Origin: a plasmid
Sequence record: NZ_CP090684.1
Direction: 5' to 3' (one strand)
Length of the DNA: 64,000 nucleotides
The notes beneath the pieces were generated by a model. That model was given only the letters and a program-made list of their open reading frames with translations, did no database searches and was not told where the DNA came from. How positions within the stretch are numbered: the first letter of the stretch is position 1; each line of letters opens with the position of its first letter. Positions 819 through 22,404 of the stretch are shown here, piece after piece. Both the position numbers and the translations under genes were made by a program.

Positions 819-1288
819 ACCCCACTGAAGTCGAAGAATGCTGTCGCAGTGAATCCCGTTTCCCCTGCTTGCAGCGGGATGACAAGGCGTACCGGTTCGC
901 TTTCAAGGCGGTCGCGATGTGCGTATTCTGTCGCTCGATAAAGCAGCGTGCGAACGGTGCGACTTCCTGATCGCAAGTACACGCGAATTGCTGGGTAGAG
1001 CATCGTGGGTTTGCTGCTCGCCAGTTGCAATTCGACGGTTGCTGTCTTCCCGTTATGCGCAAGCACGCGGAGATCCGATACCGTGACTGTGGTCACCTGG
1101 TGGTCCTCGGGTAGATAACGGATCGCTCGAATTTCAGCGATTTCCGCAGCTGATAGAACTCGCGTTGCGCCGTCCTGGCGCCCTATCCAATCCGCAGCGA
1201 TGCCCCACAGTTGAGAGGAAAACAACCAGCTTACGATGACGGCGCCCGCGGCTACCATCAGCAGCCATTTTCGAAATAGCGACTTCAT
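815..1288 (-). CDS. Hypothetical membrane-anchored protein (157 aa) between the coupling protein and the relaxase
   Basis: ORF with a hydrophobic N-terminus (MKSLFRKWLLMVAAGAVIVSWLF). ATGA overlap with the stop of the upstream TraD gene and GTGA overlap with the relaxase start, suggesting translational coupling in the transfer operon. Confidence 0.5.
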   Translation of the reverse strand: MKSLFRKWLLMVAAGAVIVSWLFSSQLWGIAADWIGRQDGATRVLSAAEIAEIRAIRYLPEDHQVTTVTVSDLRVLAHNGKTATVELQLASSKPTMLYPAIRVYLRSGSRTVRTLLYRATEYAHRDRLESEPVRLVIPLQAGETGFTATAFFDFSGV

Positions 1289-3315
1289 CAGAACAACCCC
1301 TCATTTTCTTGCGAGACCGGCTCTCGACCGTCGCTATGTTCATCGCCACGCCCGACGTCGGCTGTCGGAAGCATCACTTCGCCAGTGTCTAGATCGGTGA
1401 CGATCCACTTTCCCTGCGTCGTTACGGCCGCCGTCGGACTGGTTGCCGCTGCCGCTGCCGCTGCAGCAGCTTGGGCCTTCATTGCTTCCGCCTCGGCCCG
1501 GACGCTTTCTATCGCATCTTGACCATCCGCGGCGGATATCTTGAACCGCGGATCGCGTGGCGGGTCCGGCTGCCTCTCGCGGAATCGCAAGGTTCGTGGC
1601 CACGGTCGATACCATCGAGGTAGCCAGTGGCGGTAGTTCACCAATGCCGGCGGAAAGTCACCGGCAACCTGAACGTATGCCATGCAGTTTTTCAGCAACC
1701 CAATCTTCGATGGCATGACCACCCACTTTTCGCGCTCGTCCTGGCTAAGCTGCCCCCCGTCACGCCAATCGGTCACGGCGATCGCCTGTCCCGCCCTGAC
1801 TACGGCTGTCTCACTCTTCCCCAAGCGCCGCGCCATTCGCTCCTGCATGTTCGGTTCATTGAGACGGAGCGTAACAGTGGTGTTGAAGCAGTTCATTAGC
1901 GTTTCGGCGCGGTCCGCACCCATGGACGTATTGAACTGCTTGTCTGCTTGAATGCCAGCGGCGACGCAAACCCCGTACTTCCGCAACTCCGCTTGCCGGG
2001 CGTCCAGCTTGATGTCACCAAGGACATGCGTTTCATCAAGAAAAAACCAATAGCGGTCCTCGTGACGAATTTCCCGGCGCGCGGCAATCGTCTGAAATGC
2101 CATCGTGATCAAGAGGCGAAATAGCGGTGCGAACATCGCATACGTGTCCTCGGTGCCGATGAGGAAAAGTCGCGTGTCGTCGTCCTTTTCGTAGAACTCG
2201 CGGAGCGTCCAAGTGCCGTCCTGAACCGCGGCGATTCCGTTCAAGTAGATGGCGATTGAACTGATCACCCCTTGACGCTGCCCCTTGGAGTCGCCGCCGA
2301 CTGCCGAGCTCGCAACAGAATTCTTGATCAAGAGCTCAAGCTCGTCCTCCGGCATGGAAAGGATGGCCTCGGAAATCAGGCGGGTATAGACCGCCCCGCG
2401 TTGACGCAAGCGTAAGGCCATCACCGAAAATAGCACTCGCGCTGCGTCCTCAAAGAATGCGCTCGCACCATGCACGACCCCCGCCTTAGGCGGCAAGAAT
2501 GCGTGTGCAAGCGTGTCCGAATCGTAGGTGTTCTCCATCTCCATGAACATCGACCAAGGGACCGAGCCAAGCAGGGCGGGATTAAAGAACAGGTCTTTTC
2601 CGGGACGGTAGTACGCTCGAAAGTATTCGCCGGCATGATCGTAAATTACCGACTTTCGGCCGCGCGCGAACACCTGGCCCATAAGATCGTGAATACCCAA
2701 CGATTTGCCTGTTCCTTGCGCCCCGACAAACATAATGCCCTGCATCGGCGCAGATCGAGGAAGGGCCACGTCAAGGACGGTATACGGCCCCGCCTCCTCG
2801 CGGCGTACAGCTTTCGACAGCTCTTCAGCCGAGACGACGTCCAACGCTCCGTCGACGCGCTTGTTCTCACGAGCCCGCCGACCGAGCCGCGCAAGGGACC
2901 GCCAAACCGCGTAATAGCCGGCCGCACCAAGTCCGACGCTGACCCACGCGACATATCGGAATGCCGTGACTGGCCGAGCAAGGTCGGGTACAACGTTCCT
3001 AAACTGAGGGGGAGTTAACCACTGGGCGAGCTCGCCGTCGGATTTGACGACGGTGAGGATCTTTTTCTCCCCAACACCATCGCGAATCCGCCAGCGTCGC
3101 GGTACCTCCTGATCGACGACGTGGGACAAGATATTGGCCTTAACGAGGTCGACATCATGAGCAGTAAGCGTGTTCATCCACCAGACGCTCGGCAGAACCA
3201 TCGCCGGCAACGCCCCGACAAAAAATGCCATCGAGGCAGCATGGACAGTCAGCTTGACCCGAGTCATGAAAAGCGCGCGTCCCGCGCCGGCATCGGAGAT
3301 TACCTTTTCGGTCAT
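1288..3315 (-). CDS. traD: Type IV coupling protein (TraD/TrwB/VirD4 family ATPase)
   Basis: 675 aa. N-terminal TM segments, Walker A (GAQGTGKS) and Walker B (WFFLDETH). Ala-rich C-terminal tail. GGAGG RBS 5 nt upstream of the ATG at 3315. Lies next to the relaxase. Confidence 0.85.
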   Translation of the reverse strand: MTEKVISDAGAGRALFMTRVKLTVHAASMAFFVGALPAMVLPSVWWMNTLTAHDVDLVKANILSHVVDQEVPRRWRIRDGVGEKKILTVVKSDGELAQWLTPPQFRNVVPDLARPVTAFRYVAWVSVGLGAAGYYAVWRSLARLGRRARENKRVDGALDVVSAEELSKAVRREEAGPYTVLDVALPRSAPMQGIMFVGAQGTGKSLGIHDLMGQVFARGRKSVIYDHAGEYFRAYYRPGKDLFFNPALLGSVPWSMFMEMENTYDSDTLAHAFLPPKAGVVHGASAFFEDAARVLFSVMALRLRQRGAVYTRLISEAILSMPEDELELLIKNSVASSAVGGDSKGQRQGVISSIAIYLNGIAAVQDGTWTLREFYEKDDDTRLFLIGTEDTYAMFAPLFRLLITMAFQTIAARREIRHEDRYWFFLDETHVLGDIKLDARQAELRKYGVCVAAGIQADKQFNTSMGADRAETLMNCFNTTVTLRLNEPNMQERMARRLGKSETAVVRAGQAIAVTDWRDGGQLSQDEREKWVVMPSKIGLLKNCMAYVQVAGDFPPALVNYRHWLPRWYRPWPRTLRFRERQPDPPRDPRFKISAADGQDAIESVRAEAEAMKAQAAAAAAAAATSPTAAVTTQGKWIVTDLDTGEVMLPTADVGRGDEHSDGREPVSQENEGLF

Positions 3316-4743: not shown

Positions 4744-5408
4744 CGTTTTCCACAAATCCACGGCAGCGAACGGACGGCAGCGATTCGTTTGGATCGCAAG
4801 AGCCGTCCGCCGCGCGAGATATCCACAACGTCGTTTGTTGTGGGTATCTCATTCGGCGCGGGCTGCGGTGGGGCTTGTTGGGAAACGCGCTGCACTGGGC
4901 CACGGGCGGCTGCGGTGCGACCGGCGGTCGAAAGCGATCGCGGCGCGGATGCGCCGCGAGAGCGCCGGCCGACGTCGTCAATCCGACGTCAGGGAGTGTA
5001 GGCGGCGCAGCCGTCGAAACTCACTCAAAAATCACCTTATCCCGATCGGAGACGAGCGGGATCTGGATAGCAGCTTCCGACAACCGCGCTGTCCCCGAGA
5101 ATCGTTGATTTTTCGTGATCGGTACTCTCGCGAAAGGCTGGGGCTTCTCGCGAGCGGGTCACAGGGTGACCGGCTCGCGACGGCGCGAGCATGTGCATTG
5201 CGCAGCAATGCAATGCGGAGCGGATACCCGTACGGTAGATCTGACGAGTGGCGCGCTAGCGCCAGGAGACGGATCGGACGATTCAATTTGGAGCAAGGAA
5301 TTGCGCCAAATCTGGATAGCAGCGCTAGGGGCCCGAAACTGCCCACCCTAGCTCGCCGAGGTGCGACTTTCGCAGGCGAAAGTCGAGATTTCAATTCGGT
5401 GCGCCCTG

Positions 5409-5931: not shown

Positions 5932-6132
5932 TTACAGTGGCATCGGCGACCAAGCGCCGGGGGCGTGGCGGTACAGCGTGACGCGCTTGCGCTGGCCGTT
6001 CACCACCGTCTCCACGCGGACCGCGCGAACATCGTCTTCCTCGCGGCGCCACCGGTGCAGTACACGGATTTCCGCGTTCAGGTCACAGCCCAGAAAGAAA
6101 GCGGCGATGCGGCGAAGAAGATTCGATTTCAT
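5932..6132 (-). CDS. Small basic protein (66 aa), copy 1 of a duplicated gene
   Basis: GGAG RBS 7 nt upstream. The protein is identical to the product of 8738..8938. Confidence 0.5.
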   Translation of the reverse strand: MKSNLLRRIAAFFLGCDLNAEIRVLHRWRREEDDVRAVRVETVVNGQRKRVTLYRHAPGAWSPMPL

Positions 6133-6232
6133 GGTTGCTCCGTGCGGTTTAAGGGTTTCAGGCTGACCGGGACCCTAGATTCCGAGTCCCTTCGTAGGGT
6201 TTGTTTTAGCCCGACCGGCAGCTGCTTCTGTG

Positions 6233-6405
6233 CTGCCGCCAGTCCCCTGAGTTCGTCGTCCCGGCGACAAAGGAGCCCGTAGCCGCGCCCGGACAAGGGC
6301 GTGCCCGGAGGCCGCATGCGGAGCGCAGCCGCAGGCGAGCACCGAACGGGCGAGGACACGGCGAAGCGAACCCTTGGCCGGGCGCGGCGAAGGGCTACTG
6401 TCGCG
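6233..6405 (+). promoter_or_regulatory. Frpo/ssi-like structured element, copy A; candidate single-stranded-DNA promoter
   Basis: Conserved block ctgccgcc...cccctgagttcgtcgtccc.gcgac. Hairpin arms gcgcccggacaaggg (6285-6299) and cccttggccgggcgc (6371-6385). -35-like TTGGCC at 6374-6379, a 16-nt spacer, then -10-like TACTGT at 6396-6401, followed by gtcgcg. The promoter points away from the downstream minus-strand gene. Confidence 0.5.
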
Positions 6406-6655
6406 AAAAGGGACGGCGGACTCAGGGGACTGGCGACGGCGTGTCCGCGCGAGAGGGCAAAAACGCCGCGCGGCGAGCGCCCTTCATGCGGCCGCAGGCC
6501 GCATCACTTCAGGGGTGAATGTCCGAAAGGGCCGAAGGCCCTTTTCGGCTCCCGCGCAAGCGGGCATATCGCTAATCATGCCGCTTGGCGGCACTAGATG
6601 GCGGCGCTGCTTCGTCTACAGCGAAGCGAAGAAAAAGGCCCTTTCGGGCCTTACG

Positions 6656-8737: not shown

Positions 8738-8938
8738 TTAGAGTGGCATCGGCGACCAAGCGCCGGGGGCGTGGCGGTACAGCGTGACGCGCTTGCGCTG
8801 GCCGTTCACCACCGTCTCCACGCGGACCGCGCGAACATCGTCTTCCTCGCGGCGCCACCGGTGCAGTACACGGATTTCCGCGTTCAGGTCACAGCCCAGA
8901 AAGAAAGCGGCGATGCGGCGAAGAAGATTCGATTTCAT
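8738..8938 (-). CDS. Small basic protein (66 aa), copy 2 of the duplicated gene
   Basis: Identical protein to 5932..6132. Sits inside a near-identical block of about 560 bp (8733-9290 versus 5925-6480). Confidence 0.5.
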   Translation of the reverse strand: MKSNLLRRIAAFFLGCDLNAEIRVLHRWRREEDDVRAVRVETVVNGQRKRVTLYRHAPGAWSPMPL

Positions 8939-9038
8939 GGTTGCTCCGTGCGGTTTAAGGGTTTCAGGCTGACCGGGACCCTAGATTCCGAGTCCCCTCG
9001 TAGGGTTTGTTTCTGCCCGACCGGCAGCTGCTTCTGTG

Positions 9039-9211
9039 CTGCCGCCAGTCCCCTGAGTTCGTCGTCCCGGCGACAAAGGAGCCCGTAGCCGCGGCCGGAC
9101 AAGGGCGTGCCCGGAGGCCGCATGCGGAGCGCAGCCGCAGGCGAGCACCGAACGGGCGAGGACACGGCGAAGCGAACCCTTGGCCGGGCGCGGCGAAGGG
9201 CTACTGTCGCG
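9039..9211 (+). promoter_or_regulatory. Frpo/ssi-like structured element, copy B
   Basis: Near-identical to copy A. -35-like TTGGCC at 9180-9185, a 16-nt spacer, then TACTGT at 9202-9207. Confidence 0.5.
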
Positions 9212-9498
9212 GAAAGGGACGGCGAACTCAGGGGGCTGGCGAAGGGCGCTGCACACCGCGCGAGGGCAGAAACGCCGCGCGGCGAGCGCCCACAAGCGGC
9301 CGTAGGCCGCTTCACTTCAGGCGTTCGGGAGAAAGGGGCTCAGCCCCTTTCGTCCGGCGAAGCCGGGCCACGGACACGTGTGGTCCGACCACATGAGATC
9401 AGGGGCGATTTCGCCTTGGGTCCATTGCAGCGCTACGGTGCGAATTGCCGCGTTTCCACCGCAGGCGCCTCGAGATCGCTTGGCGAGCTGGAGTGCAC

Positions 9499-10110
9499 CT
9501 AGCGCACTTGATCGAGCGGTCGGCATTGCGCCAGCCTTGACCGAAAGTGCTGCTCGAAGGCTTCCGCCAATACCGGGTCATTCCATGCGATCACCACGTT
9601 CTCGCTGTTCGATTTTGCGCCCGCCGCGGTGTAGTTGATGCTTCCAGTCTGGACGCTCCGGTGGTCCAGTATCATTGCCTTGTCGTGCATTAAGCGATAT
9701 CGGTCCACGACGCATATGGCAGCACCGGCGCGCGCGAGATAGTCGAGCCCGCGGCGGATGTAGCCATCTCGATCGTTCGCGATGCTTTCGCCATAGTCAA
9801 CGGCGATTGCAACGGGGACCCCCGCTCGTGCCTTCGCTGCCAGCGCCTCGATTAGCGGCCGATACGTCATTACGTACGCCAGGACGTGAATGGAACGATG
9901 CGCCGAACCCACGCCGTACAAGACGAGATCCATCCCCTTACCGTCCGGAGAAAAAGCATATGAGGTCACACGACCCTCGGGGGCTGCGGTCGTGAGCACC
10001 GTTGCGACGCTCGCGACTGGCGAGGCAAATGCCGCCAACGCGATCGCAAGCTCGGCAATACATCCGGCGATCACTGCGGGGGCTGTCCATGACAGCAGCT
10101 TTAGTGTCAT
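9499..10110 (-). CDS. Phospholipase-D-family endonuclease (Nuc-like, HKD motif) with an N-terminal signal/TM segment
   Basis: The run HDKAMILD followed by ...GSINYT fits the HxK..D..GSxN signature of PLD/Nuc nucleases such as pKM101 Nuc. Start MTLKLL at 10110 overlaps the upstream stop. Confidence 0.7.
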   Translation of the reverse strand: MTLKLLSWTAPAVIAGCIAELAIALAAFASPVASVATVLTTAAPEGRVTSYAFSPDGKGMDLVLYGVGSAHRSIHVLAYVMTYRPLIEALAAKARAGVPVAIAVDYGESIANDRDGYIRRGLDYLARAGAAICVVDRYRLMHDKAMILDHRSVQTGSINYTAAGAKSNSENVVIAWNDPVLAEAFEQHFRSRLAQCRPLDQVR

Positions 10111-10580
10111 GTCCGCGCGCTCCCCGAAGTAACCGGCCGGAGCCGTGCGACCGGGGGAAACTGATTCGCCGGGATGACGCGTCCAACGCTCACGTGTGTC
10201 TGGCAGCGATCGGCCTGCGTCGTCACGTAAACCCACGTCGCCGGATCGAGCGAAAACCGCGAGGTGACGATGCCCCCCTCGGCGATCGCCAGTTGATTCG
10301 CAAGATGCTCAGTCGACGGGAGCTCCGACCAATCTCCGATCGCGTGCCGAATGACGAACTCCATCTCACGGCGATCAAGTGACGCGAGCACCGCTCGAGC
10401 GGCTGTCGACATTTTGATGCTACCGGTCTCAACGATTGGGTGAAGAGGAAGCGCCTGCGCCACCTCACCGCGACCACTGACTAGATAACAATGCCATTCC
10501 GGCAGGAGGTCTCCAACGAGGGCGCGGGCTTGCAGCTGCTGACTGCTATCGAGCTCGAAAAAATAACGGATTGTGGGCAT
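10107..10580 (-). CDS. Hypothetical protein (157 aa)
   Basis: ORF sitting between the primase and the nuclease in the same operon. Confidence 0.45.
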   Translation of the reverse strand: MPTIRYFFELDSSQQLQARALVGDLLPEWHCYLVSGRGEVAQALPLHPIVETGSIKMSTAARAVLASLDRREMEFVIRHAIGDWSELPSTEHLANQLAIAEGGIVTSRFSLDPATWVYVTTQADRCQTHVSVGRVIPANQFPPVARLRPVTSGSART

Positions 10581-10583
10581 AGG

Positions 10584-12155
10584 TCACCGTTCAGTGGCGT
10601 TGGTCGATACAAGTTCCCTTGGCAGCATCACCCTGACCTGCTCCCGCACGGCCGCCAAACCTTCGGCGCTTGCGAGGTCATTGAAATCGGTCGGACGCCC
10701 GACGAGGGAGTTGAATACAGGCACGATCGCCTGGCATCTGAGGATCCGTGCTGCTTCGGCGGCTGAGTCGACACCTCTGTTGGACGTCGTGGACCGGACA
10801 TGCTTTCCGTCGCTCCCCGTGATCACATCAACGGTCACAGAACGAGCAACCCCGCAGCGGCATTCCACCGCAAGCCGGTACTTTCCGTGTGCGCTCGCAT
10901 GCCATTGCCCGTCCGCGATCGCATCGACGATTCTCACGGTTCGAGTCGCGTCCCGGGGTCCCGCGTTGACCTTGAAAGAGCATTCGGTCTCAGGCGCCAC
11001 GCTACCTAGTTCGGCAATCCGCGTGACGGCTGTCTCAAGAAAAAACTGGTCGTTGTCGGCGCAAACGAGCTTCGGTTGCCGCCGCGGCAGGACGTGCACG
11101 AGGTCTTTCGCAACCGCAACGAGGTTGCCTGCGTCGAAGCACACAACCACCGGTAGGCCCGTCGCTTCGTAAATCGACGCTCCCGTTGCGTACCCTTCCG
11201 AGAGCAGCACCGCCGGCGCGCTTACGAGGTCAGCGACACGTCGCGCGCCGATCAGGTGAAAGGCACCGGTCTTTCGCGCTCCCTTCGTGAATAGCTTGCT
11301 TCCGTCGGGACCGAGCGCCTGGACAGTTCGCAGCCGGTCTTGAATATCCCGTCCGGGAGCGATCAAGTATTCGTCGGATGTCGACTTGAAGTGCTCCAGG
11401 TTCAGCAGGGTAATCATGTCCATACCCCGGCCGCTCGCAATCCGGAGACCGTGCGCGGCTACCCCTTTGCGGGCCAAATACGGGTGCGCGTCACATTCGA
11501 CTTCCGGCAGGGTCACGAGCACCTTTAATGCCCTCGCCGCTATCTCGCGCTGCTCCTCGATCACCTTTGCAGCGCGCGCCGCACGGCGATCGCTATCGGC
11601 CGCCTCGAGTGCGGCGCGTTGCTCGCGTGTCAGGCGTCCCTTCTGAAAGCGCCACGGGCCAGATGCCCCCTTAAAATTTCGGATGTAACCCCGCCACTCC
11701 CCACCAACACGCTCGAGCTTGTAGCTTCCGCTGTTGCGTGGTCCGGCCGGCGTTTCGACTTTGGCCGTATGCCAGGCTCCATCCGCACGTACGGTGTCGG
11801 GGATAAGCCCAAAGGTACGCATCGCGAGGCTGAAGTCCGCGATCGCTTCCTCTGGGTCAATGCCGGCATTCGCAAGCACGGTCTCATCGACGATCCACTC
11901 GGCAAAAGGCGTCCGATCCATCGACGCGTCGATCCAGCAAAGGCGCCGATCGTAATCGAGATGCGCCCCGAGAGACCGAGCCTTCGGAATGTCTCTGGGG
12001 GGTACCGCAAGGTAAATTCGCTGCGCTTGCGATGCGTTGGACTTGATGTTTCCTTGCTGCCGTGACGATTTTCCCTGCGGAACTGAGGCGAGAAAGCGCT
12101 CAACGGCCCTGGCCTGCCCACTAGTCGAACGTTTTGCCATGGTTGTGCTGTACAT
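10584..12155 (-). CDS. DNA primase, Toprim-domain (conjugative TraC-type)
   Basis: 523 aa. The segment LSEGYATGASIYEATGLPVVVCFDAGNL is a Toprim acidic motif. N-terminal domain resembles the DUF5710 found in ICE/plasmid primases. Strong AAAGGAGGTG RBS 6 nt upstream of the ATG at 12155. Confidence 0.7.
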   Translation of the reverse strand: MYSTTMAKRSTSGQARAVERFLASVPQGKSSRQQGNIKSNASQAQRIYLAVPPRDIPKARSLGAHLDYDRRLCWIDASMDRTPFAEWIVDETVLANAGIDPEEAIADFSLAMRTFGLIPDTVRADGAWHTAKVETPAGPRNSGSYKLERVGGEWRGYIRNFKGASGPWRFQKGRLTREQRAALEAADSDRRAARAAKVIEEQREIAARALKVLVTLPEVECDAHPYLARKGVAAHGLRIASGRGMDMITLLNLEHFKSTSDEYLIAPGRDIQDRLRTVQALGPDGSKLFTKGARKTGAFHLIGARRVADLVSAPAVLLSEGYATGASIYEATGLPVVVCFDAGNLVAVAKDLVHVLPRRQPKLVCADNDQFFLETAVTRIAELGSVAPETECSFKVNAGPRDATRTVRIVDAIADGQWHASAHGKYRLAVECRCGVARSVTVDVITGSDGKHVRSTTSNRGVDSAAEAARILRCQAIVPVFNSLVGRPTDFNDLASAEGLAAVREQVRVMLPRELVSTNATER

Positions 12156-12367
12156 GAGACACCTCCTTTCTCAGAGGCGGATCGCGTCGAGCGGCAGGCA
12201 GCCGACCACAACGGTCAGCGCCGCTGCATGAAATTCTTTGCTTATCCCCTGCCCCGAAACCTTCCCGTTGCGTACCATCGCGTTCTCCGTTGGTTTTGAG
12301 CCGACCGGAACCCAAGATTCTGAGTCCCGGCGTACCGGCCGAGTCGACGCAGCGCTACCCGCAGCTG

Positions 12368-12523
12368 CTGCCGCCGTTCCCCTGAGTTCCTCGTCCCGCG
12401 AACTAGTCAGGTGAGGTGACCCGTCGGTCAAGGGGGCAAGCGAGGGGATAGGGGCGGGCAGTCGCGTAGCGACAACACGGCCCCGAGCGCCTTGACCGAC
12501 GGGCCGCCGAACCTACGGTCGCG
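12368..12523 (+). promoter_or_regulatory. Frpo/ssi-like structured element, copy C
   Basis: Perfect 14-bp stem: cccgtcggtcaagg (12420-12433) with ccttgaccgacggg (12490-12503). -35-like TTGACC at 12492-12497, a 16-nt spacer, then TACGGT at 12514-12519, then gtcgcg. Confidence 0.5.
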
Positions 12524-12652
12524 CGCAAGGACGAGGACAAAGGGGGGGACGGAGCTGCAGGGCAGGAATACCGGAGGCTCGGCGCCGCGCGGCGAGCGCC
12601 CATCGCGCGAAGCGCGACGCGACAGCGCGTCCGGATGGACGAAGAGCGAAGC

Positions 12653-12679
12653 GAAAAAAAAGCCCCGCTGGTGCGGGGC
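12653..12679 (-). terminator. Rho-independent terminator (minus strand) downstream of the 188-aa gene
   Basis: On the minus strand: hairpin gccccgc-accagc-ggggc followed by TTTTTTTT. Confidence 0.55.
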
Positions 12680-13768: not shown

Positions 13769-13794
13769 AAAAAAAAACCCCGTCACCGACGGGG
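13769..13794 (-). terminator. Rho-independent terminator after the ParB-like gene
   Basis: On the minus strand: hairpin ccccgtcggtgacgggg followed by TTTTTTTTT. Confidence 0.6.
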
Positions 13795-13826
13795 CAAATT
13801 TGCGACTGCTCAGAGATATCGTTGAA

Positions 13827-16082
13827 TTAAGCCGCCGGCCGGCTTCCAGCGAGCACGTTCGGCGTCGGCGTCGCAAACGGCCACGGGAATCGCGCCGATT
13901 GAGTGACTCGGCCTCCCGCAAATTCCGTCGGCGCGACGTCGGCTGGCTTCACGCCGGTCTCAGCACCGTCCGGACTATCCGAGACCGTGTCAGGTTGCGC
14001 CGGTTCATCACCCAGCACTTCCTCGTGGGCTCCGAGATTGTCCGCCGTCGCGAGCTCGCCGTCCGCATCCTCCTGCTCATTACCGTCATCGCCGAAATAG
14101 GTTCGCGCGGTACGGACTTCGGCAGCAGCCATGAATTCGGGAAGCCAGTTCTTGTCGGCAAGCAGTTTTTCCGCTTCCTGCGCCGCCTCTGCCTTCTTCA
14201 TTTTCCCCAACCTCGCCCCATGCTCCTTCGAAATGACGTCACTCACGATCGCAACGATTCGATCCTTCGAGACATGATTAAGGTACGACTCGCAGGTGGG
14301 CTTCCAGTACTTCGTGAGGTCAAGTTCCAGAGCGCCGGCGAGCGCATTGATAGCATTCGGTTCTTCCGTGCGGCTCACACCATTCAGACTCAGAGCCGTG
14401 CAAACGGCGAGAATGTTCAGGACTACCGCTTGCGGCTGTTCGAGCAACCATCCGAACAGTTCGTTCGGGTTTTTCGGAATCATGCGAGTGACCGCCAGCA
14501 CCGACCGTGCAAGCTGGTCGTACTGGGGCAACTCCTTGATGCCGGGCACAGCTCGATCCGCGCTGTACATCGGCTGCTGTTCCTTGATCTGCACAGCACT
14601 GAGGTCGCTATAGTGCTCATAGACGAACTCCAGCAACAGTCGGTGTGCGACAGCGACGAGCGCAACGCCGGGGTTCGCAACAAGCGCGGTTTGAACCGCT
14701 GCCGTGCGGTGCGACGTCAGATTGAGCAGCAGTTTCTCCGAATGCAGCCCCTTAACCTTCTTGGTCAGGCTACGCGGGACCGACTGACCTGCCTCTTCCA
14801 TCATCGCACGCGCTTGCGCCCGATTCTCGCGACGCACCAAGCCGCGCACGATTTCAAGTGCTCCGTCGTAGCCGACCGTGACGATCGCCCCGCTCACTTT
14901 CATCTGCTCCGAGGTGAACTCTCCGTCGCGGTCGTCCATTTCCTGCATGATCGCGTAAAGCTGATTGCACTCGCCGTCCAGCTTTTCCCGGTCCTCGTCG
15001 CTGAGGTACGCAGCATCGCCCACTTCGGCATCGTAGCTTGCCTCGATTTTCTCGCTGAGTTCGTCGGCCCGCATTTGAGCTTCTTCGTATTTTGCCTTTT
15101 CGTCGCTAGTGAGCGGAACCGGAGTGGAATAAAGTTGCGTAAACTGGTTGCGGTCGTCATAGTCGAAGGTCGGTCGGGCTTCAACCCAATTCCAGCCTTC
15201 GGCCTTGATCGATTCGACCGTGCAGGCGATTTTCTCATCGAACAATCGAGCCAGCAGCTCACGATTGACGATGAAACCGTCATCTTGCTCCGCGAACAGG
15301 TCGCGCTCCACCTCTCCCCCGGCTGCTTCGTATGCGGCGACAGTCACGAATCGCACCATCCGGTCCCCGAACGACAGTTTCTCGCCTTTCAGCACATTGC
15401 GCAGTGCGTTAGGGCTCTGGTTCCAGTGTCCCTTTGCACCGAACCACGCCGCTTCCTGTCGCTCGTGGTTGTCGGTGATGGCAAGCGCCTTGATCTGTTC
15501 GAGGCTGATGACGTCCGCAGCAAACAGTTCAAAGAGCTTCGGGGAAACGTTCGCGAGCTTCAATCGACCGGCGACGACCTTCGGACTGACATTGAAGACT
15601 GCCGCAATGAACTCAGGGCTTCGGCCCTCGTCTGCAAGCGCCTTGTAGGCAGCGAATTGGTCTGCAGGGTGCGGGGGTACGTGCAAGTCATTTTCTGACG
15701 CACTAGCAAGGATCGCCTGCGCCTCCGAAATCTCGATGCAACGCACTTCATCGTCCATCGACATGTAGCCGCGCTCGACGTTGAACAGGAACGCTTGACG
15801 GCGCGTTTCCCCCGCGTCGACGCCCCACTCCTGCGCCTTCTTCGCCCTCTGCGGCATTTTATGCACAACGAGGTTCTGTAGTTGACCGACAGCAAGCATG
15901 TTGTCTGCGATTGCCACAATGGTCGCTTGATCGCGCTTCTTCTTACGCTGGTTATACGGCGAAGCGACCAGCCGTTTCAACGGAATCATCACTTCCCGTT
16001 GCCCTGCGCGAAGCATGTTCGGCATGTCGGCGGGCAGTGCATCGGCGTTCACGTTGGCGTCTTGTGCAATCACGGTTTTCAT
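13827..16082 (-). CDS. ParB/Srx-like nuclease-domain protein (751 aa)
   Basis: N-terminal segment VASPYNQRKKKRDQATIVAIADNMLAVGQLQNLVVHKMPQ is typical of the ParB N-terminal/sulfiredoxin fold. Long acidic C-terminal region. ATG at 16082 with a GAGGAA RBS. The longer ORF to 16298 runs into the repeat and is rejected. Confidence 0.7.
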   Translation of the reverse strand: MKTVIAQDANVNADALPADMPNMLRAGQREVMIPLKRLVASPYNQRKKKRDQATIVAIADNMLAVGQLQNLVVHKMPQRAKKAQEWGVDAGETRRQAFLFNVERGYMSMDDEVRCIEISEAQAILASASENDLHVPPHPADQFAAYKALADEGRSPEFIAAVFNVSPKVVAGRLKLANVSPKLFELFAADVISLEQIKALAITDNHERQEAAWFGAKGHWNQSPNALRNVLKGEKLSFGDRMVRFVTVAAYEAAGGEVERDLFAEQDDGFIVNRELLARLFDEKIACTVESIKAEGWNWVEARPTFDYDDRNQFTQLYSTPVPLTSDEKAKYEEAQMRADELSEKIEASYDAEVGDAAYLSDEDREKLDGECNQLYAIMQEMDDRDGEFTSEQMKVSGAIVTVGYDGALEIVRGLVRRENRAQARAMMEEAGQSVPRSLTKKVKGLHSEKLLLNLTSHRTAAVQTALVANPGVALVAVAHRLLLEFVYEHYSDLSAVQIKEQQPMYSADRAVPGIKELPQYDQLARSVLAVTRMIPKNPNELFGWLLEQPQAVVLNILAVCTALSLNGVSRTEEPNAINALAGALELDLTKYWKPTCESYLNHVSKDRIVAIVSDVISKEHGARLGKMKKAEAAQEAEKLLADKNWLPEFMAAAEVRTARTYFGDDGNEQEDADGELATADNLGAHEEVLGDEPAQPDTVSDSPDGAETGVKPADVAPTEFAGGRVTQSARFPWPFATPTPNVLAGSRPAA

Positions 16083-16188
16083 AGCATTCCTCAAAATTAA
16101 CATTGAAGTTGTGACGGGACCGCCGGGCCCCAAGATTCTGAGTCCCGGCGTAAGCCGTTCTGTCGAGTCGGCGGGCCGCGCTCCGCAG

Positions 16189-16344
16189 CTGCCGCCGTTC
16201 CCCTGAGTTCGTCGTCCCGCGACGATCGGAGCGAGGACCAGTGCATCGTCAAGGGGTGACGCGCGGGTCGGTGCGGGAGGGAGCGCAGCGACTGACACGG
16301 TCCCGCGCGCCCTTGACGTTGCGCTGGCCGCAGCTACAGTCGCG
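16189..16344 (+). promoter_or_regulatory. Frpo/ssi-like structured element, copy D
   Basis: Stem cgtcaagggg (about 16245) pairs with cccttgacg (about 16309). -35-like TTGACG at 16313-16318, a 16-nt spacer, then TACAGT at 16335-16340, followed by gtcgcgg pairing with the upstream ccgcgac. Confidence 0.5.
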
Positions 16345-16731
16345 GAGGTGGACGGCGAACGAGGGGGACGGAGATGAAGGCAGCACCCGTACCACGACGA
16401 GCCAGAACGCCCCGCGCGGCGAGCGCGCTATCCGAGCGGCGCGACGTCAGGAGCGCCGAGAGGCTGGAGGGATGGCCCGCGCCGGGGCAAGTCCGCGGGA
16501 CGCGGCGCAGCCCCAAGAGCGGAAGTGTTTGGTCTCCGGGCCGCCGCGTGCGCGGCTTGCGTGTCGGCCGGTAGTGCCGGCCGGCGCGCAAGGTGCGGCG
16601 GCCCGGCTGGCTTCCGGGCCCAGGTCCACCGTCAGTGCAGCGTCGGTAGGTCCGCGCCTTCTTCCGTTCCCACGCCCCACGAGAATTCGGCCAATACGTA
16701 TGGGGCGAGCGTCGCGCTCGCCCAACGATAG

Positions 16732-16924: not shown

Positions 16925-17278
16925 TCAGACCACCTCAGAGACAGGGAAACCGGCTTCAGTGAGCTCACGGCGCGCATCGTCATCCCAGGTCGTCGGCGAC
17001 TCGGACTCACAGCGATACGCGTAGGCGATTGCCGCTTCGCGTGCGTCGGCCGACAGACCGCCGGTTACTTTGACCACGACCTCCCAGTATGTCCCGAAGT
17101 CGTGGGCGCTGCTCTTGATGAACAGGCTGGCACCGTCGGGGGGTTCGCCCAAGGTGCGCCTGATTTGGTTGATGAAGGCCGTGCATTCGGCTCGGCTACG
17201 CTCCAGGTAGCGCATGTCGCCCACTTGCGCACATGCCTCATCACATGGCGCTGGTCCAATCTCAATCGTTTCCACCAT
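16925..17278 (-). CDS. Hypothetical acidic protein (117 aa)
   Basis: AGGAGAG RBS 8 nt upstream of the ATG at 17278. Acidic composition. Confidence 0.5.
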   Translation of the reverse strand: MVETIEIGPAPCDEACAQVGDMRYLERSRAECTAFINQIRRTLGEPPDGASLFIKSSAHDFGTYWEVVVKVTGGLSADAREAAIAYAYRCESESPTTWDDDARRELTEAGFPVSEVV

Positions 17279-17374
17279 CGTACAGCTCTCCTAAAAAATA
17301 TAGACTGACCGGGCCCCAAGATTCTGAGTCCCGGCGTGAAAGGTTCTGGCGAGTCGGCGGGCCGCGCTTCGCAG

Positions 17375-17532
17375 CTGCCGCCGTTCCCCTGAGTTCGTCG
17401 TCCCGCGACGCCTCGAGCGACGAGCCGGCGACGCGTCAAGGAGTCAAGCGCGGGGTGGGCGCGGGAGGGAGCGCAGTGACCGACACGGACCCCGCGCGCC
17501 TTGACGCGGCAGAGGCCGACGCTACGGTCGCG
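17375..17532 (+). promoter_or_regulatory. Frpo/ssi-like structured element, copy E
   Basis: Stem cgcgtcaagg (17433-17442) pairs with ccttgacgcg (17499-17508). -35-like TTGACG at 17501-17506, a 16-nt spacer, then TACGGT at 17523-17528. Outer stem cccgcgac pairs with gtcgcggg. Confidence 0.5.
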
Positions 17533-17911
17533 GGGAATGGACGACGAACGAGGGGGACGGGGGTGCGGACAGTGCTTGCTCCGTGACGAGCCGGAACGCC
17601 CGCGCGGCGAGCGCGCTATCCGAGCCGGCGCGACGCGAGGAGCGCCGCGAGGCTGGAGGGATGGCCCGCGCCGGGGCAAGTCCGCGGCACGCGGCGCAGC
17701 CCCAAGAGCGGAAGTGTCCGGATTCCGGGCCGCCGCGTGCGCAGCTTACGTGCCGGCCGGCAGCGCCGGCCGGCGCGGAAGGCGCTGCCCGGCGGCCCGC
17801 ATGTCACCGGCGATCCCGGTCGAGGACTCGGATCGCCGTCCCTGCCAATTGCGGTCCGATGGCGGTCCCATGGAGTGCGGTCGAGCGAGTTGAAGCTCAT
17901 GAAGATGACGG

Positions 17912-18918: not shown

Positions 18919-19418
18919 GCTGCCTCCACACGACGGCCGAACAGCATCAGTGCGACTGCTTCGAGGCGTGCTGCTGTATCGATAAGGACGCCATCGTCGT
19001 CGGCAAGCACGGTGATGTAGCTGGATTCGCCGCGTGGACGACCAGCCGCATCTCGCGCAACGTGTACTACACTGACGCCGGCCGCCTGCAGCCCGCGCCG
19101 GGCATATTCCGCAAAGGTGTCTGCCTCGCCGTGCTCCCTTTCAACCCTTCGCATACGCTGCTGAATGCGTTCGATCTTGCGGACGGCAGCGCGCAATTCG
19201 CCCAATTCCGGGGTGAGACTGTTCAACACGACGCGATGGCCGAATGCCACTGCATGGTCGCGACTGACGAAGGCGCGAAGCTCAATCGTCCCCGAATACT
19301 CGTACCCCACCGCACTGACCACCGCGCGTTGAATCTCAACGACGAGTTCAGTAACGTTGTGGTCCCGTTCGACGTACAGCATGGCATGCAGTTGGGGTTT
19401 CGTTGCGCGTCGTGTCAT
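18915..19418 (-). CDS. Hypothetical protein (168 aa)
   Basis: Start MTRRATKPQLHAM at 19418. The longer ORF that runs into the repeat is rejected. Confidence 0.45.
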   Translation of the reverse strand: MTRRATKPQLHAMLYVERDHNVTELVVEIQRAVVSAVGYEYSGTIELRAFVSRDHAVAFGHRVVLNSLTPELGELRAAVRKIERIQQRMRRVEREHGEADTFAEYARRGLQAAGVSVVHVARDAAGRPRGESSYITVLADDDGVLIDTAARLEAVALMLFGRRVEAA

Positions 19419-19511
19419 TGCATAGCTCCGTGGATGTTTGCTGACCGGGCCCCAAGATTCGGAGCCCTTCGTAGGGGTTTCCTTTCGGCGGACGCTGATT
19501 GGGTCGCAGCG

Positions 19512-19667
19512 TTGCCGCCGTTCCCCTGAGTTCATCGCCCTGCGACTCCGGAAGTTCGAGGAGGCGTCGCGTCAAGGAGGCAAGGGCGGGGGCGGTGCGG
19601 GACGAAGCGCAGCGAAGGACACGGCCCCGCACGCCTTGACGCGAGGCTGACGAGGACTACGGTCGCA
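19512..19667 (+). promoter_or_regulatory. Frpo/ssi-like structured element, copy F
   Basis: Stem gcgtcaagg pairs with ccttgacgc. -35-like TTGACG at 19636-19641, a 16-nt spacer, then TACGGT at 19658-19663. The outer stem here is ctgcgac with gtcgcag, a compensatory change relative to ccgcgac/gtcgcgg in copies D, E and G. Confidence 0.5.
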
Positions 19668-20196
19668 GAACTGGGCGATGACGGGGAACGGTGCGTAACG
19701 CGTGACCTGCGATCGCGCGAAAGGCCCGCGCGGGTAGCGCCTGTTCGCGCAGCGAAGCGGAGCGACTGGAATGGGCGGCAAGCGCCGGGCGAAGCCCTGG
19801 AGCGTTCAGTTTGTTTCCCGGTCCGTGGCGAGTTTCCTCGCCACGGATCCGGCTCGATGCCGACAGCTTTACCGCTGAAAGGCCTGATATTGGGCAGCAA
19901 CGACCACTTAGGTCGCGCGTGTGGCGCTATGGTCGCCCCCGATCCCCCGACGCGTACTCCGAAATCGAGGGGGCGACCGCGCAAACCGCCCTCCTCTCGC
20001 GCTTTCGACGCTATTGGCGCCTGGTCCCGCATCGGCCCGATGCGACGAGCCGCAGCGAGTGCGAGTACCCTGCAATGGCAAAAAACCCCACAGCTCCGAC
20101 CGCGCGCACTTACGGGCGACCGTCGCTGCCGCCATCTCGGTGTTGTTTGACTGAAGGTGCTGGGCACGGACCTTGAGAATTCCAGCACTCGTTTGC

Positions 20197-21990
20197 TCAA
20201 AGCACGAACGGCAGGTCTGCTTGCGCACTGGAGGTCGTTGCCTTGTGTGCCCATGCAGTGCGCGCCGGCGACGGCAACGCCGCAAAACGCACCGCGCGGC
20301 GAAGCAGATCAGCAACGGCATAGTCGAGCGTTAGTCCAAGCCGATCTTTGAAATCTGTACGACGCGCGATCTCGTCGTGTTCTCGTTGCTGTGCTCGTGA
20401 CAATGTCAGCGTGCCATAGTTTAGGTACCAACGGTACCCAGCCGTGATGCCTCCAGGGAAGAATCCGGCATCATGCATTTCGACCAGGCGCTCGAATTCG
20501 AAGTCCAGGATCATCTCGGCCGATTCCTCGTCGACTTCGAACCGCTTACCGGTCGGCACCTCCCAAGTGGTTCGCCCGCCCTTGAGATGGTGAACTTTCC
20601 GAGCACATGGAGAGTCTTCAGTCAAAGCCTCGAACAGCGGATCTCGGAACCCTGTCCACTGATCCGCGGTGTCGTCCCAGTGCTCTCCGACATGCAGAAA
20701 CATAGGCTCCGGCATTGGCTGCGGCGCGACCGGCATAACGTCCGGAACATCGTATCGAACGCCGTTGCAGTAGATGTCACGATAGTCAGCCCATATCGCG
20801 AAGGGTGGTGCCAGGCCTTGAAGCGATTGCATAGCATCGACGGCAATCATCATCGTCAAGGGCAACGTTTGAAATTTGGGCCGCGATCCAGTGCGCTTTG
20901 CGCGGACCAGCTCGTCTCGGTCGATCGTCATCATGTACCGCACAAGCTCTCGCACAGTGGCCGCGTTGAATGTGTCCGGCTCTATGCAGATGTAGCCTTC
21001 TTTAATGGTACGACCGACCCAATTTCGGCGGGACCAGTCATACCGAATCGCACGGATGAACTTGTTGAGGCGGTTCAGTCCACTCGCATACGCGTAGCGA
21101 TCCTCATCAAATTTGATCATCTCTTCGAGCGATCGGTCTTCCGCCTGTTGGCACGTCCAACATCCTGTCCGCGCGTCGCAGTGCCCCCTGCGCTTCCGTT
21201 TTCCGGCCGACGCCTCTTCGAATGAGAGGTCTGAGACGATCGCGCAGCTGCTGTTGCCTGCGTGCGCATAGATTCGCGAGGTTTCTCGGAAGTCCGTGTA
21301 GGTAGACCGAAGACCTGACGTTACTTCGCCGATGTACTCCCAGACGTCCTCAGTCTCCCAGTCAGCGATCACACACAGCGTGAGGTCACCCTCGTCGTTG
21401 CGCACGGGTGTATCGGCACGATCGCCACGGGCTTGCATGCCGGCCTTCCGCTTCGCGCTTTCGGCAAACCTCGATCCGAGGCATACGACCGGCTCAGCAT
21501 ACCCCTGCTGCTTCGCAGCGCGCGCGAGTTGATTTCGGAACACTCTGGAAGGCTCGATCTTCAAGCTCACTGAGCAGTCCGAGTTCGTACCTGCATAGCT
21601 TGGGAGCGCTCGACCGCTGAGAATCGTGACCTGCCAAGAGGTGGCCAGTGACGGCGCGACCGTTTGCACGTGGACCCTGACGTTGTGCCGCTTTCCGTAC
21701 GCGTGCATTTTCGCCAACTCCCGCTGGGCGTGCGCTACGATCTCAGGCGACTCGACCCCGGTGTCAGCGGTAACGACGTAGACGACCGCCTCGCCTCCTT
21801 CTGCCGCGTGTCGACGGGCGGCTTCGAGAGTCAGCGCCGCTACGACGCCACTGTCCTTACCGGCGCTGAACTGGCAGATCGCGATACGGCGCTCGTGAAA
21901 TAGCCGCCGCAAGGCCGCGACGGCACGCTCTACTCGCTGATCAAGCGTCGGCCGTTGTTGAAGATGAGGAAACAAATCGATCGTTTGCAT
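20197..21990 (-). CDS. PAPS-reductase-like / PP-loop ATP-pyrophosphatase family protein (597 aa) with a CxxC segment
   Basis: The PP-loop SAGKDSGVVAAL is an SGGKDS-type motif. A later CWTC motif resembles DndC/IbrA-like enzymes that partner with ParB-like proteins. Confidence 0.65.
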   Translation of the reverse strand: MQTIDLFPHLQQRPTLDQRVERAVAALRRLFHERRIAICQFSAGKDSGVVAALTLEAARRHAAEGGEAVVYVVTADTGVESPEIVAHAQRELAKMHAYGKRHNVRVHVQTVAPSLATSWQVTILSGRALPSYAGTNSDCSVSLKIEPSRVFRNQLARAAKQQGYAEPVVCLGSRFAESAKRKAGMQARGDRADTPVRNDEGDLTLCVIADWETEDVWEYIGEVTSGLRSTYTDFRETSRIYAHAGNSSCAIVSDLSFEEASAGKRKRRGHCDARTGCWTCQQAEDRSLEEMIKFDEDRYAYASGLNRLNKFIRAIRYDWSRRNWVGRTIKEGYICIEPDTFNAATVRELVRYMMTIDRDELVRAKRTGSRPKFQTLPLTMMIAVDAMQSLQGLAPPFAIWADYRDIYCNGVRYDVPDVMPVAPQPMPEPMFLHVGEHWDDTADQWTGFRDPLFEALTEDSPCARKVHHLKGGRTTWEVPTGKRFEVDEESAEMILDFEFERLVEMHDAGFFPGGITAGYRWYLNYGTLTLSRAQQREHDEIARRTDFKDRLGLTLDYAVADLLRRAVRFAALPSPARTAWAHKATTSSAQADLPFVL

Positions 21991-22084
21991 GGCTGCTCTA
22001 TCCGCATGTTGGGTGGCGCCGGGCCCATAGATTCCGAGTCCCGGCGTAAGCCGTTCTGTCGAGTCGGCGGGGCCGCTGCTGCGC

Positions 22085-22238
22085 CTGCCGCCGTTCCCCT
22101 GAGTTCGTCGTCCCGCGACGATCGGAGCGAGGACCGGAGCAACGTCAAGGGCGACGCGCGGGGCGGTGCGGGATGGAGCGCAGCGACTGACACGGCCCCG
22201 CGCGCCTTGATGGTGCGCAGGCCGCAGCTACAGTCGCG
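22085..22238 (+). promoter_or_regulatory. Frpo/ssi-like structured element, copy G
   Basis: -35-like TTGATG at 22207-22212, a 16-nt spacer, then TACAGT at 22229-22234, then gtcgcgg. Stem caagg...gcgcgggg pairs with ccccgcgc...ccttg. Confidence 0.5.
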
Positions 22239-22404
22239 GAGATGGACGACGAATGAGGGGGAAGAAGGAGTCAGGGCGTGACGTCGCGCGAGACAGAACG
22301 CCGCGCGGCGAGCGCCCTTTCACGCGGCAAGCGCCAGCGGCGCCGCGTGACACAATTTCGGCCTTTTAGTGCGCAGGACGGTAGAACAGCGCACTCGTCA
22401 GATA

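Follow-up and report, generated by a model that had tools for sequence, protein, structure and literature searches.

A conserved stem-loop in the mRNA leader of predicted single-strand promoters on a Burkholderia plasmid: a candidate RNA-level element

Introduction

Single-strand promoters act as a switch for the expression of anti-defence and establishment genes within minutes of plasmid entry. Those characterised so far belong to enterobacterial classes only, classes 1–3 being described for IncF and IncI plasmids (PMC12672017). In the Frpo/ssi class 1 and the class 2/3 single-stranded DNA promoters of IncF and IncI1 plasmids, a long imperfect hairpin of the transferred strand rebuilds the −35 and −10 hexamers, and multiple copies per leading region stand upstream of co-oriented establishment and anti-defence operons (Masai & Arai 1997; PMC9849209; PMC12672017; PMC11541004). 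One of them, the validated promoter Frpo2 of the F plasmid, drives HerB/YfjB (PMC13370423; PMC9849209). HerB is a ParB-like CTP-binding 'host expression reprogrammer'. A question for the field is how transcripts of naked single-stranded DNA stay free for ribosomes and do not end as primer hybrids. Here, we analyse a stretch of 64,000 nucleotides (nt) of a plasmid (sequence record NZ_CP090684.1), called the window hereafter, in which seven cassettes that are most likely promoters of this kind each carry a short stem-loop in the predicted mRNA leader. We think that this leader stem-loop is a self-contained RNA-level element acting in cis on the transcript, a reading to which we assign a probability of about 0.5, and considerably less to any particular sub-mechanism.

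The cassettes share with the Frpo classes a long imperfect hairpin, here of the predicted transferred strand, the multiple copies upstream of co-oriented operons and even the genes that are driven, HerB/YfjB in the window and DUF932/YgeB-like genes in relatives. They differ in having no detectable sequence similarity to the F leading region (no nhmmer hit with the cassette profile; best blastn E 2.2), in their number (7–14 per plasmid versus 2–6) and in the leader, since F Frpo1 and Frpo2 have no comparable constant-loop stem-loop between the hairpin base and the ribosome-binding site (RBS). Moreover, the activity of the cassettes is predicted. The cassette would be best filed as a new sequence class beside the IncF/IncI classes 1–3, and it looks like a separate and very prolific one, with seven copies here, up to 13–14 in relatives and occurrences on more than 120 metagenome contigs. 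It occurs in plasmids and integrative and conjugative elements (ICEs) of Burkholderiales; among these are Burkholderia plasmids sampled from human sputum and from other human-associated sources. No description of the Burkholderia cassette or of its hairpin was found in the searchable literature. The leader stem-loop, as tightly conserved as the −35 and −10 hexamers, is the part that the F and IncI promoters lack.

The leader stem-loop in seven copies

A first-pass annotation of the window had listed seven copies of a hairpin upstream of genes, in addition to a promoter hairpin. All seven are on the + strand, with coordinates that agree within 1–3 nt. The degenerate pattern CCGGNNCCNWAGATTC has seven exact + strand matches in the window, starting at 6167, 8973, 12305, 16123, 17309, 19445 and 22019, versus 0.01 expected (100 shuffles). 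The repeat finder returned the same blocks as a seven-member + strand family, D4, at 6165, 8971, 12303, 16121, 17307, 19443 and 22017, with the + strand consensus GACCGGGcCCCwAGATTCnGAGTCCCGGCGT. In the RNA sense the stem-loop reads 5'-(CG)CCGGGACUC / nGAAUCUw / GGGKCCCGG(CG)-3', the constant loop GAAUCU being AGATTC on the + strand. The hairpin exists as proposed, but with a longer helix and a shorter loop: what had been taken as a nearly invariant loop core is half stem, its part GAGuCCC being one arm of the helix. The stem variants GGGAC/GUCCC and CCGGG/CCCGG stand in one register, a GGG/CCC core being extended inward in the one case and outward in the other.

The location in a predicted 5' untranslated region (UTR) on the mRNA (minus) strand holds, as does the distinction from the promoter hairpin: the stem-loop is just beyond the base of the long hairpin, the median gap between the two being 8 nt. 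In copy D, our reference, it occupies 16121–16150 with the long-hairpin base at 16156, that is, about +67 to +97 of the predicted transcript. In the window, 24–38 nt separate the base of the stem-loop from the start codon downstream in the seven copies; over 58 copies from 12 plasmids the median distance is 30.5 nt, with 55 of the 58 at 19–47 nt. It precedes the RBS, as had been suggested, but lies roughly 10–28 nt from the Shine-Dalgarno sequence instead of 20–40 nt.

All copies are on the minus strand in the RNA sense. Copy A (6165–6193) has a GGGACUC/GGGUCCC stem with the loop GGAAUCUA and an RNA folding free energy (dG) of −13.6 kcal/mol; the ATG at 6132, 32 nt downstream, opens a 66-amino-acid (aa) open reading frame (ORF). 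Copy B (8971–8999) stands 32 nt before the ATG at 8938 of the duplicated 66-aa ORF. Copy C (12299–12336; dG −19.3) is about 20–26 nt, depending on the base pair chosen, from the ATG at 12278 of a 35-aa ORF, downstream of which a DUF5710/Toprim gene starts with the ATG at 12155. Copy D (CGCCGGG.CUCAG/CUUGG.CCCGGCG; dG −20.4) is 38 nt from the ATG at 16082 of a HerB/YfjB-like ParB-family gene, and copy E (17308–17335) is 29 nt before the ATG at 17278. Copy F (19443–19470), 24 nt from the ATG at 19418, is a one-base-deletion variant, GGGCUCC/GGGGCCC, in which the register is shifted and the helix retained. Copy G (22017–22046) stands 26 nt before the ATG at 21990 of a PAPS-reductase-family gene.

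An attenuator had been among the proposed functions, and the sequence UAUAUUUUUU after copy E had been pointed out. This U-run is real, beginning about 9 nt past the stem, and is confined to copy E. A GC-rich hairpin in a long leader, followed in one copy by such a run, could indeed be read as an intrinsic terminator, or as a transcriptional attenuator at which some transcripts end short of the gene. However, none of the seven copies was flagged in the terminator scan, which did flag genuine minus-strand terminators between operons (6635–6652, 12662–12679 and 13777–13795). In nearly all of 64 copies, UCAGC and then a C/A-rich linker come after the stem. There is no U-tract apart from the run of copy E, no conserved AUG or leader ORF and no alternative anti-terminator pairing, and the predicted accessibility of the RBS is unaffected by the hairpin. 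We find this explanation hardly credible.

Conservation and distribution

Homologues without the hairpin would, according to the first-pass annotation, have refuted its proposal; instead, all 79 cassette copies with an intact left end keep the stem-loop. They come from about 12 genera (Burkholderia, Paraburkholderia, Caballeronia, Pandoraea, Mycetohabitans, Ralstonia, Variovorax, Rhodoferax, Pseudorhodoferax, Achromobacter, Stutzerimonas and Pseudomonas). The backbones sharing the stem-loop comprise MOBF/MPF_F plasmids, MOBP plasmids and chromosomal elements. Matches to the cassette occur in 141 plasmid records, most of them conjugative, of Burkholderia, Paraburkholderia, Pandoraea, Mycetohabitans, Ralstonia, Pseudomonas, Delftia and others. 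A wider sample of 15 more genomes and 120 metagenome contigs added a second clade (clade II) in Variovorax, Rhodoferax, Achromobacter, Stutzerimonas and IncP-type Pseudomonas plasmids. The scan of genome contigs with the 16-mer CCTGAGTTCNTCGYCC was unspecific, about 105 of its 120 loci being chance and 15 carrying cassettes.

The loop GAAUCU is retained in 74 of the 79 copies, with a single purine change in the other five. In 66 unique sequences aligned at the loop, AAUCU never varies, and 62 of them have the first G; the 3' arm GG..CCCGG is nearly invariant and the 5' arm less conserved. Loop invariance in the metagenome set is by construction, because the retrieval pattern fixed the loop, while the nhmmer-based sets were unconstrained. 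The conservation of the stem-loop is on a par with that of the promoter hexamers: the block has 1.47 bits per column versus 0.72 for the adjacent linker (38 nt) and 1.61–1.63 for the −35 and −10. The motif was never found outside cassettes, which argues that it is not an independent operator-like motif. Rfam 15 gave no match in the 64-kb window at the gathering score, and a search around copy D at E up to 10 gave just chance-level matches (E 0.7–10); ARAGORN found no tRNA or tmRNA.

Such sequence constancy might need no function of the block itself, if the cassettes had duplicated recently and been homogenised by recombination, or if the block were left over from a partial duplication of the left arm of the long hairpin (block D3, described below). 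Copies in one plasmid are often near-identical, D3 and the block are about 65% alike, covariation in the stem is weak and one cassette is without the block. However, the neighbouring 38 nt are poorly conserved, with half the information content of the block, which stays at promoter-hexamer level across genera and backbones, and the loop core is invariant, with GAAUCU kept in nearly all copies of an independent search. We give this explanation a small chance.

Short conserved repeats before several leading-region operons are known from other plasmids as sites in duplex DNA. The CUP repeats of IncN plasmids (pKM101/R46), conserved upstream of many leading-region genes, contain a 13-bp duplex operator of the repressor ArdK at conventional promoters (Delver & Belogurov 1997, cited in PMC6289460). 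The Reg576 operators of the Bacillus plasmid p576 are short motifs shared upstream of several establishment operons, namely duplex heptamer repeats at ordinary promoters that are bound by a common ribbon-helix-helix repressor, and the authors explicitly contrast them with single-strand promoters (PMC6294495). The stem-loop block could be an operator of either kind, or else a parS-like loading site for the HerB/ParB-like protein whose gene follows copy D. It is an imperfect 9-bp inverted repeat with an 8-bp centre, present 7–14 times per leading region, and D3 has a direct-repeat motif resembling it, CCCCnnGAnTTCnnnGTCCCG. The window codes for a HerB homologue, in clade II the cassette is often directly upstream of a HerB-like gene, and HerB has no known loading site (PMC13370423). 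However, the invariant centre and the far stronger conservation of one arm are the opposite of what a dimer operator shows, and a strand bias of pairing, such as that described in the next section, is meaningless in duplex DNA. In contrast to CUP, the block is about 70–95 nt downstream of the predicted start of a promoter that is expected to be off in duplex form. Moreover, the motif does not occur away from cassettes, for example at a regulator's own promoter, it is common to MOBF/MPF_F plasmids, MOBP plasmids and chromosomal elements, and F has HerB but no such site beside Frpo. No ArdK-like partner was identified, although no search for an ArdK homologue was made. On balance, we think that a duplex-DNA site for a plasmid-encoded protein is quite improbable.

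The same architecture, 9-bp arms around an invariant 8-bp centre as a crossover region needs, might suit the core site of a site-specific recombinase that shuffles the operon cassettes of the leading region, and the gene content between cassettes is mosaic among plasmids. Yet the annotation of the leading regions of four homologous plasmids (L001–L004) contains no recombinase gene, and homologous recombination between 320-nt cassettes explains the mosaicism. To our knowledge, the block has no resemblance to dif either. Such a role is very unlikely.

The block of clade I, the clade used for the helix comparisons below, holds two GANTC sites of CcrM/HinfI type (GATTCnGAGTC), in the window at 6178/6184, 8984/8990, 12316/12322, 16134/16140, 17320/17326 and 22030/22036. 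The clade II block also has two, in a different position (GATTCCTAGATTC), and the adenine of GAGTC falls in a C·A mismatch on the + strand. A reading of the block as GANTC sites was rejected: the window has 226 of them versus 221 expected, with neither enrichment nor depletion, and some variants carry one or none.

An RNA helix or an element of the transferred strand

The proposal of an RNA-level element is partly supported by a test of the two strands. With the same energy model, the mean dG is −16.2 kcal/mol in the RNA sense versus −10.8 kcal/mol in the + sense, the RNA sense being more stable in 48 of 48 unique sequences, and the z scores against dinucleotide shuffles are −2.66 and −1.24, respectively. 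The stem is more stable in the RNA sense because G·U pairs (107 of the 504 pairs in the RNA-sense minimum-free-energy structures) turn into C·A mismatches on the transferred strand. MAFFT misaligned the indel variants among 62 leaders, and the RNAalifold consensus of that alignment (−0.73 kcal/mol) was meaningless; ungapped sub-alignments were used instead. Over 30 distinct clade-I sequences, 78.9% of the positions of a 12-pair helix are paired in the RNA sense versus 62.5% in the + sense; one pair is U·G in all 30 in the RNA sense and C·A in all 30 on the + strand. Copies that are without the outer CC/GG pairs have the inner A-U pair in six of six cases, and the A-deletion variants all have N = C and K = G, which restores a 7-bp stem in a shifted register. 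When the whole 5' UTR is considered, the probability of the hairpin reaches a median of 0.996 and exceeds 0.5 in 59 of 64 copies.

The main rival to an RNA-level element is one at the DNA level, serving the structure or the recognition of the folded transferred strand. The block and block D7 would then be two small GC hairpins on either side of the long-hairpin base that delimit the long hairpin or stabilise it against single-stranded DNA-binding protein, or they would be a priming or loading site of a host or plasmid protein on single-stranded DNA, for which the primase-like DUF5710/Toprim protein encoded at 10584–12155 is a candidate partner. D7 (16409–16430, + strand, in copy D) is a conserved GC mini-hairpin, CCGCGCGGCGAGCGC, at the right border of the cassette; its motif CCGCGCGGCGAGCGCC lies just outside the long-hairpin base on the side opposite to the leader stem-loop, for example at 6463–6482 in cassette A. 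It is conserved as well as the stem-loop (1.42 bits per column) although it is outside the predicted transcript and untranscribed in the single-strand mode, which means that DNA-level constraints on the flanks of the hairpin exist. In addition, the stem-loop block abuts the long-hairpin base, its most conserved half, CCGGnnnCCwAGATTC, is at the outer edge of the cassette, and a local DNA hairpin forms in 38 of 63 + strand minimum-free-energy folds. Clade II retains GAAUCUwGGAAUCCGG with a weaker stem (median dG −9.4 kcal/mol; 12 of 31 weaker than −8 kcal/mol), and there the RNA sense is better in just 23 of 31; a sequence kept with a weak stem fits sequence-specific recognition, equally possible at the DNA level. 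On the other side stand the constant C·A mismatch and the lower paired fraction of the + strand, whose helix reaches a mean of only −5.1 kcal/mol with DNA parameters. Moreover, there is no conserved primase trinucleotide, CTG depending on the variable position n, and F Frpo1 and Frpo2 function without such a flank. We therefore regard a DNA-level element as unlikely, although it is the alternative to be taken most seriously.

The evidence of D7 and of clade II weighs against an RNA-level element, and so do several further points. Covariation is weak, with double changes in one of 12 pairs and a covariation score matched by 33 of 500 shuffles. The paired fraction is reached by 51 of 500 column shuffles, so that most of the signal is sequence conservation, and the loop with the 3' arm (GAAUCUwGG..CCGG) is more conserved than the pairing 5' arm. 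One natural cassette (L003, 17552–17787) keeps D3 and the promoter without the leader hairpin and without the second leader hairpin described below. Finally, no binding factor is known for the stem-loop, and the transcription start, the transferred strand and the promoter activity are themselves predictions.

Possible role of the stem-loop

If the RNA-level reading is right, the position of the stem-loop in the predicted transcript suggests what it might do: it is the first sequence transcribed past the self-paired promoter, with an unstructured linker and then the RBS behind it. Once the plasmid has entered by conjugation, the + strand would fold each cassette into an imperfect hairpin of about 260 nt that rebuilds the sigma-70 −35 and −10 hexamers. 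RNA polymerase would initiate inside the stem, copy about 60 nt of the left arm and exit at the hairpin base. The block would be transcribed first after this exit, and the nascent RNA would form a 9–12-bp, G·U-containing stem capped by nGAAUCUw, before an unstructured, G-poor linker of 20–40 nt and the Shine-Dalgarno sequence and start codon of the downstream operon. Beyond the hairpin base there would be no non-template strand to displace the RNA, and strong self-folding at this point would stop the propagation of an RNA-DNA hybrid. In addition, after processing upstream, the stem-loop would remain as a 5'-proximal protective hairpin. In this model, the most likely role of the stem-loop is to mark the switch from hybrid-prone promoter-proximal RNA to free, translatable and stable mRNA, through 5' protection and/or template release.

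The constant loop is common to unrelated plasmid and ICE backbones, which suggests a factor that reads it, probably host-encoded. Frpo transcripts have two fates, as mRNA or as the RNA-DNA hybrid primer for second-strand synthesis (bioRxiv 10.64898/2026.01.09.698686), and these two fates make a device at the hairpin exit plausible. In its most specific form, the leader (about the first 30 nt, encoded by D3, together with the stem-loop) would be a cis-acting RNA device for single-stranded templates, which chooses between free mRNA and a priming RNA-DNA hybrid. It might peel the nascent RNA off the template or modify the polymerase, as put RNA does, with a host factor reading the GAAUCU loop. 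We hold this specific version to be rather improbable. If the stem-loop did govern the fate of RNA as mRNA or primer on single-stranded DNA, the significance would be high. A mutable 30-nt element at the hairpin exit offers a direct handle on this question. If it is only a stabilising hairpin, the finding is modest, but still useful for annotating leading regions and finding early-expressed genes.

Two kinds of leader hairpin offer themselves for comparison. The 5' hairpin of ompA is an example of an mRNA-stabilising stem-loop in a 5' leader; like it, the element described here is a stable 5' UTR hairpin that does not occlude the RBS, and a single-stranded A/U-rich linker just upstream could make it 5'-terminal after processing. 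However, known 5' stabilisers need to be no more than a few nucleotides away from the 5' end and their loops are not conserved, whereas our hairpin has an invariant loop and lies about 65 nt from the start of the predicted transcript. The boxB of lambda nut and the put RNA of HK022 are leader hairpins with sequence-specific loops that act on RNA polymerase. They resemble our case in being promoter-proximal nascent stem-loops, and the leader here would have two hairpins, as put does. In contrast, there is no boxA, no GNRA-like pentaloop, no N-like protein and no Rfam match, the two hairpins are about 20 nt apart and not adjacent, and nothing suggests intra-operon terminators in need of being overridden.

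Other candidate functions were considered and rejected. Sequestration, opening or insulation of the RBS finds no support, as the unpaired probability of the region from −15 to +6 is 0.543 in the native leaders versus 0.541 with the hairpin deleted (p = 0.61); with shuffled arms it is 0.527–0.530. A sigma-54 promoter (GG-N10-GC, spanning the 3' arm and UCAGC) was judged by eye from the lists of copies: D, G and several of the clade II copies do not have the required spacing. A likeness to the T-loop of tRNA (CGAAUC) is defeated by an impossible closing pair, and ARAGORN found none. A CsrA-type GGA loop arises only when n = G, in 26 of 66 sequences. By inspection, neither the loop nor the 3' arm has complementarity for pairing with the D3 RNA.

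The cassette as a predicted single-strand promoter

Each of the seven blocks is the left end of a cassette of about 320–340 nt, and alignment and nhmmer give exactly seven cassettes in the window, all on the + strand: A at 6159–6485, with a long imperfect hairpin and the −35 and −10 on its right arm, B at 8965–9293, C at 12297–12603, D at 16118–16431, with its long hairpin at 16156–16409, E at 17301–17620, F at 19437–19746 and G at 22019–22321. Folded as DNA, the + strand of two copies gave z scores of −4.5 and −6.3. The long hairpin formed in 63 of 63 copies tested, with a median span of 257 nt and a median dG of −105 kcal/mol, and it rebuilds TTGACG-N16-TACnGT. CCTTGAC and CTACnGTCGC are kept in every copy. 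In copy D, the hexamers TTGACG-N16-TACAGT (16313–16340, + strand) are on the right arm, which is the non-template arm of the folded strand, so transcription should run down the left arm toward the minus-strand genes; the leftward −10 on the complementary strand is degenerate (TCCGAT). The pairing map of this copy has a 5-nt bubble at 16345–16349, just past the −10, where the start region is expected. The predicted first template base is near 16217, which would give a 5' UTR of about 135 nt. Taken together, we think that the cassette is most likely an Frpo-like promoter, predicted to be active while the plasmid is single-stranded.

Block D3 (16182–16222, minus strand, in copy D), on the left arm, would template roughly the first 30 nt of the RNA. 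No other block of the cassette is as conserved: it has 1.69 bits per column versus 0.98 for its pairing partner on the right arm. The stronger conservation of the template arm points to a constraint on the transcript itself.

Other features of the cassette were seen beside these. D3 and the leader block D4 (16121–16151) share CCCCnnGAnTTCnnnGTCCCG, with about 65% identity. A second leader hairpin (HP1), CGGCGG...CCGCCG with a variable loop, is predicted in all seven copies (about 16170–16197, minus strand, in copy D; RNA nt about 20–48), which would make a two-hairpin leader RNA. In duplex form, the right-arm TTGACG-N16-TACAGT is a reasonable rightward sigma-70 promoter, antisense to the 3' end of the upstream operon, and every cassette might thus produce an antisense RNA in established plasmids. 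To the right of D7, the similarity between cassettes D and E continues for 163 nt (16437–16599 and 17626–17788, 90% identical), a stretch that holds a GC hairpin, GGCCGG-N6-CCGGCC, and has a chance-level match to PtaRNA1 (E 0.68).

Plasmid context and neighbouring genes

The window is 97.6% identical to a Burkholderia multivorans plasmid and, to judge from its sequence, is the leading region of a Burkholderia MOBF/MPF_F conjugative plasmid. The ORF at 1288–3315 (minus strand) is a coupling protein of TrwB/TraD type. The four homologous plasmids have a MobF relaxase, then the coupling protein, a gap of about 1.5 kb and an array of co-oriented small operons with a cassette in front of each, 9–14 per plasmid. 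The products of the array include ParB-like, PLD-nuclease, DUF5710/Toprim, methyltransferase, ArdC-like zincin, DUF3560, DUF932 and PAPS-reductase-family proteins. This gene order is the same as in the F leading region, and by this likeness the strand transferred should be the + strand. A cluster of several inverted repeats (for example CGACTTTCGC/GCGAAAGTCG at 5364–5385) occupies 4808–5385, in the interval from the coupling-protein operon to the first cassette. This is likely the region of the origin of transfer (oriT), although neither nic nor oriT was located in the window and no site was identified within these repeats.

The gene behind copy D (13827–16082, minus strand, 751 aa) encodes a full-length homologue of F YfjB/HerB, with 29% identity over 669 aa (E 5e-62). 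A 300-nt duplication, 5932–6231 and 8738–9037, 99% identical, covers the 66-aa ORF (ATG at 6132 and 8938) and the left ends of cassettes A and B; the same small gene is thus present twice, each time behind its own cassette. Behind cassette C there is only the 35-aa ORF (12171–12278, minus strand) ahead of the DUF5710/Toprim gene. Its counterpart in pBPSE01 (L001, 15858–16133) has 91 aa, and the ORF in the window may be truncated.

Natural damage to cassettes was seen in relatives. Truncated cassettes stand before a DUF6878 operon in two plasmids (L003, 17552–17787; L001, 22226–22390), and the latter consists of the right half only, so that no hairpin is possible. In Ralstonia pHA4-1 (L010, 12260–12316 and 15002–15229), an element of the IS21 family has inserted into a cassette and split it, some 25 nt rightward of the hairpin block, and in a Pseudomonas IncP plasmid (L011, about 9226–11548) a cassette lies directly beside IS21.

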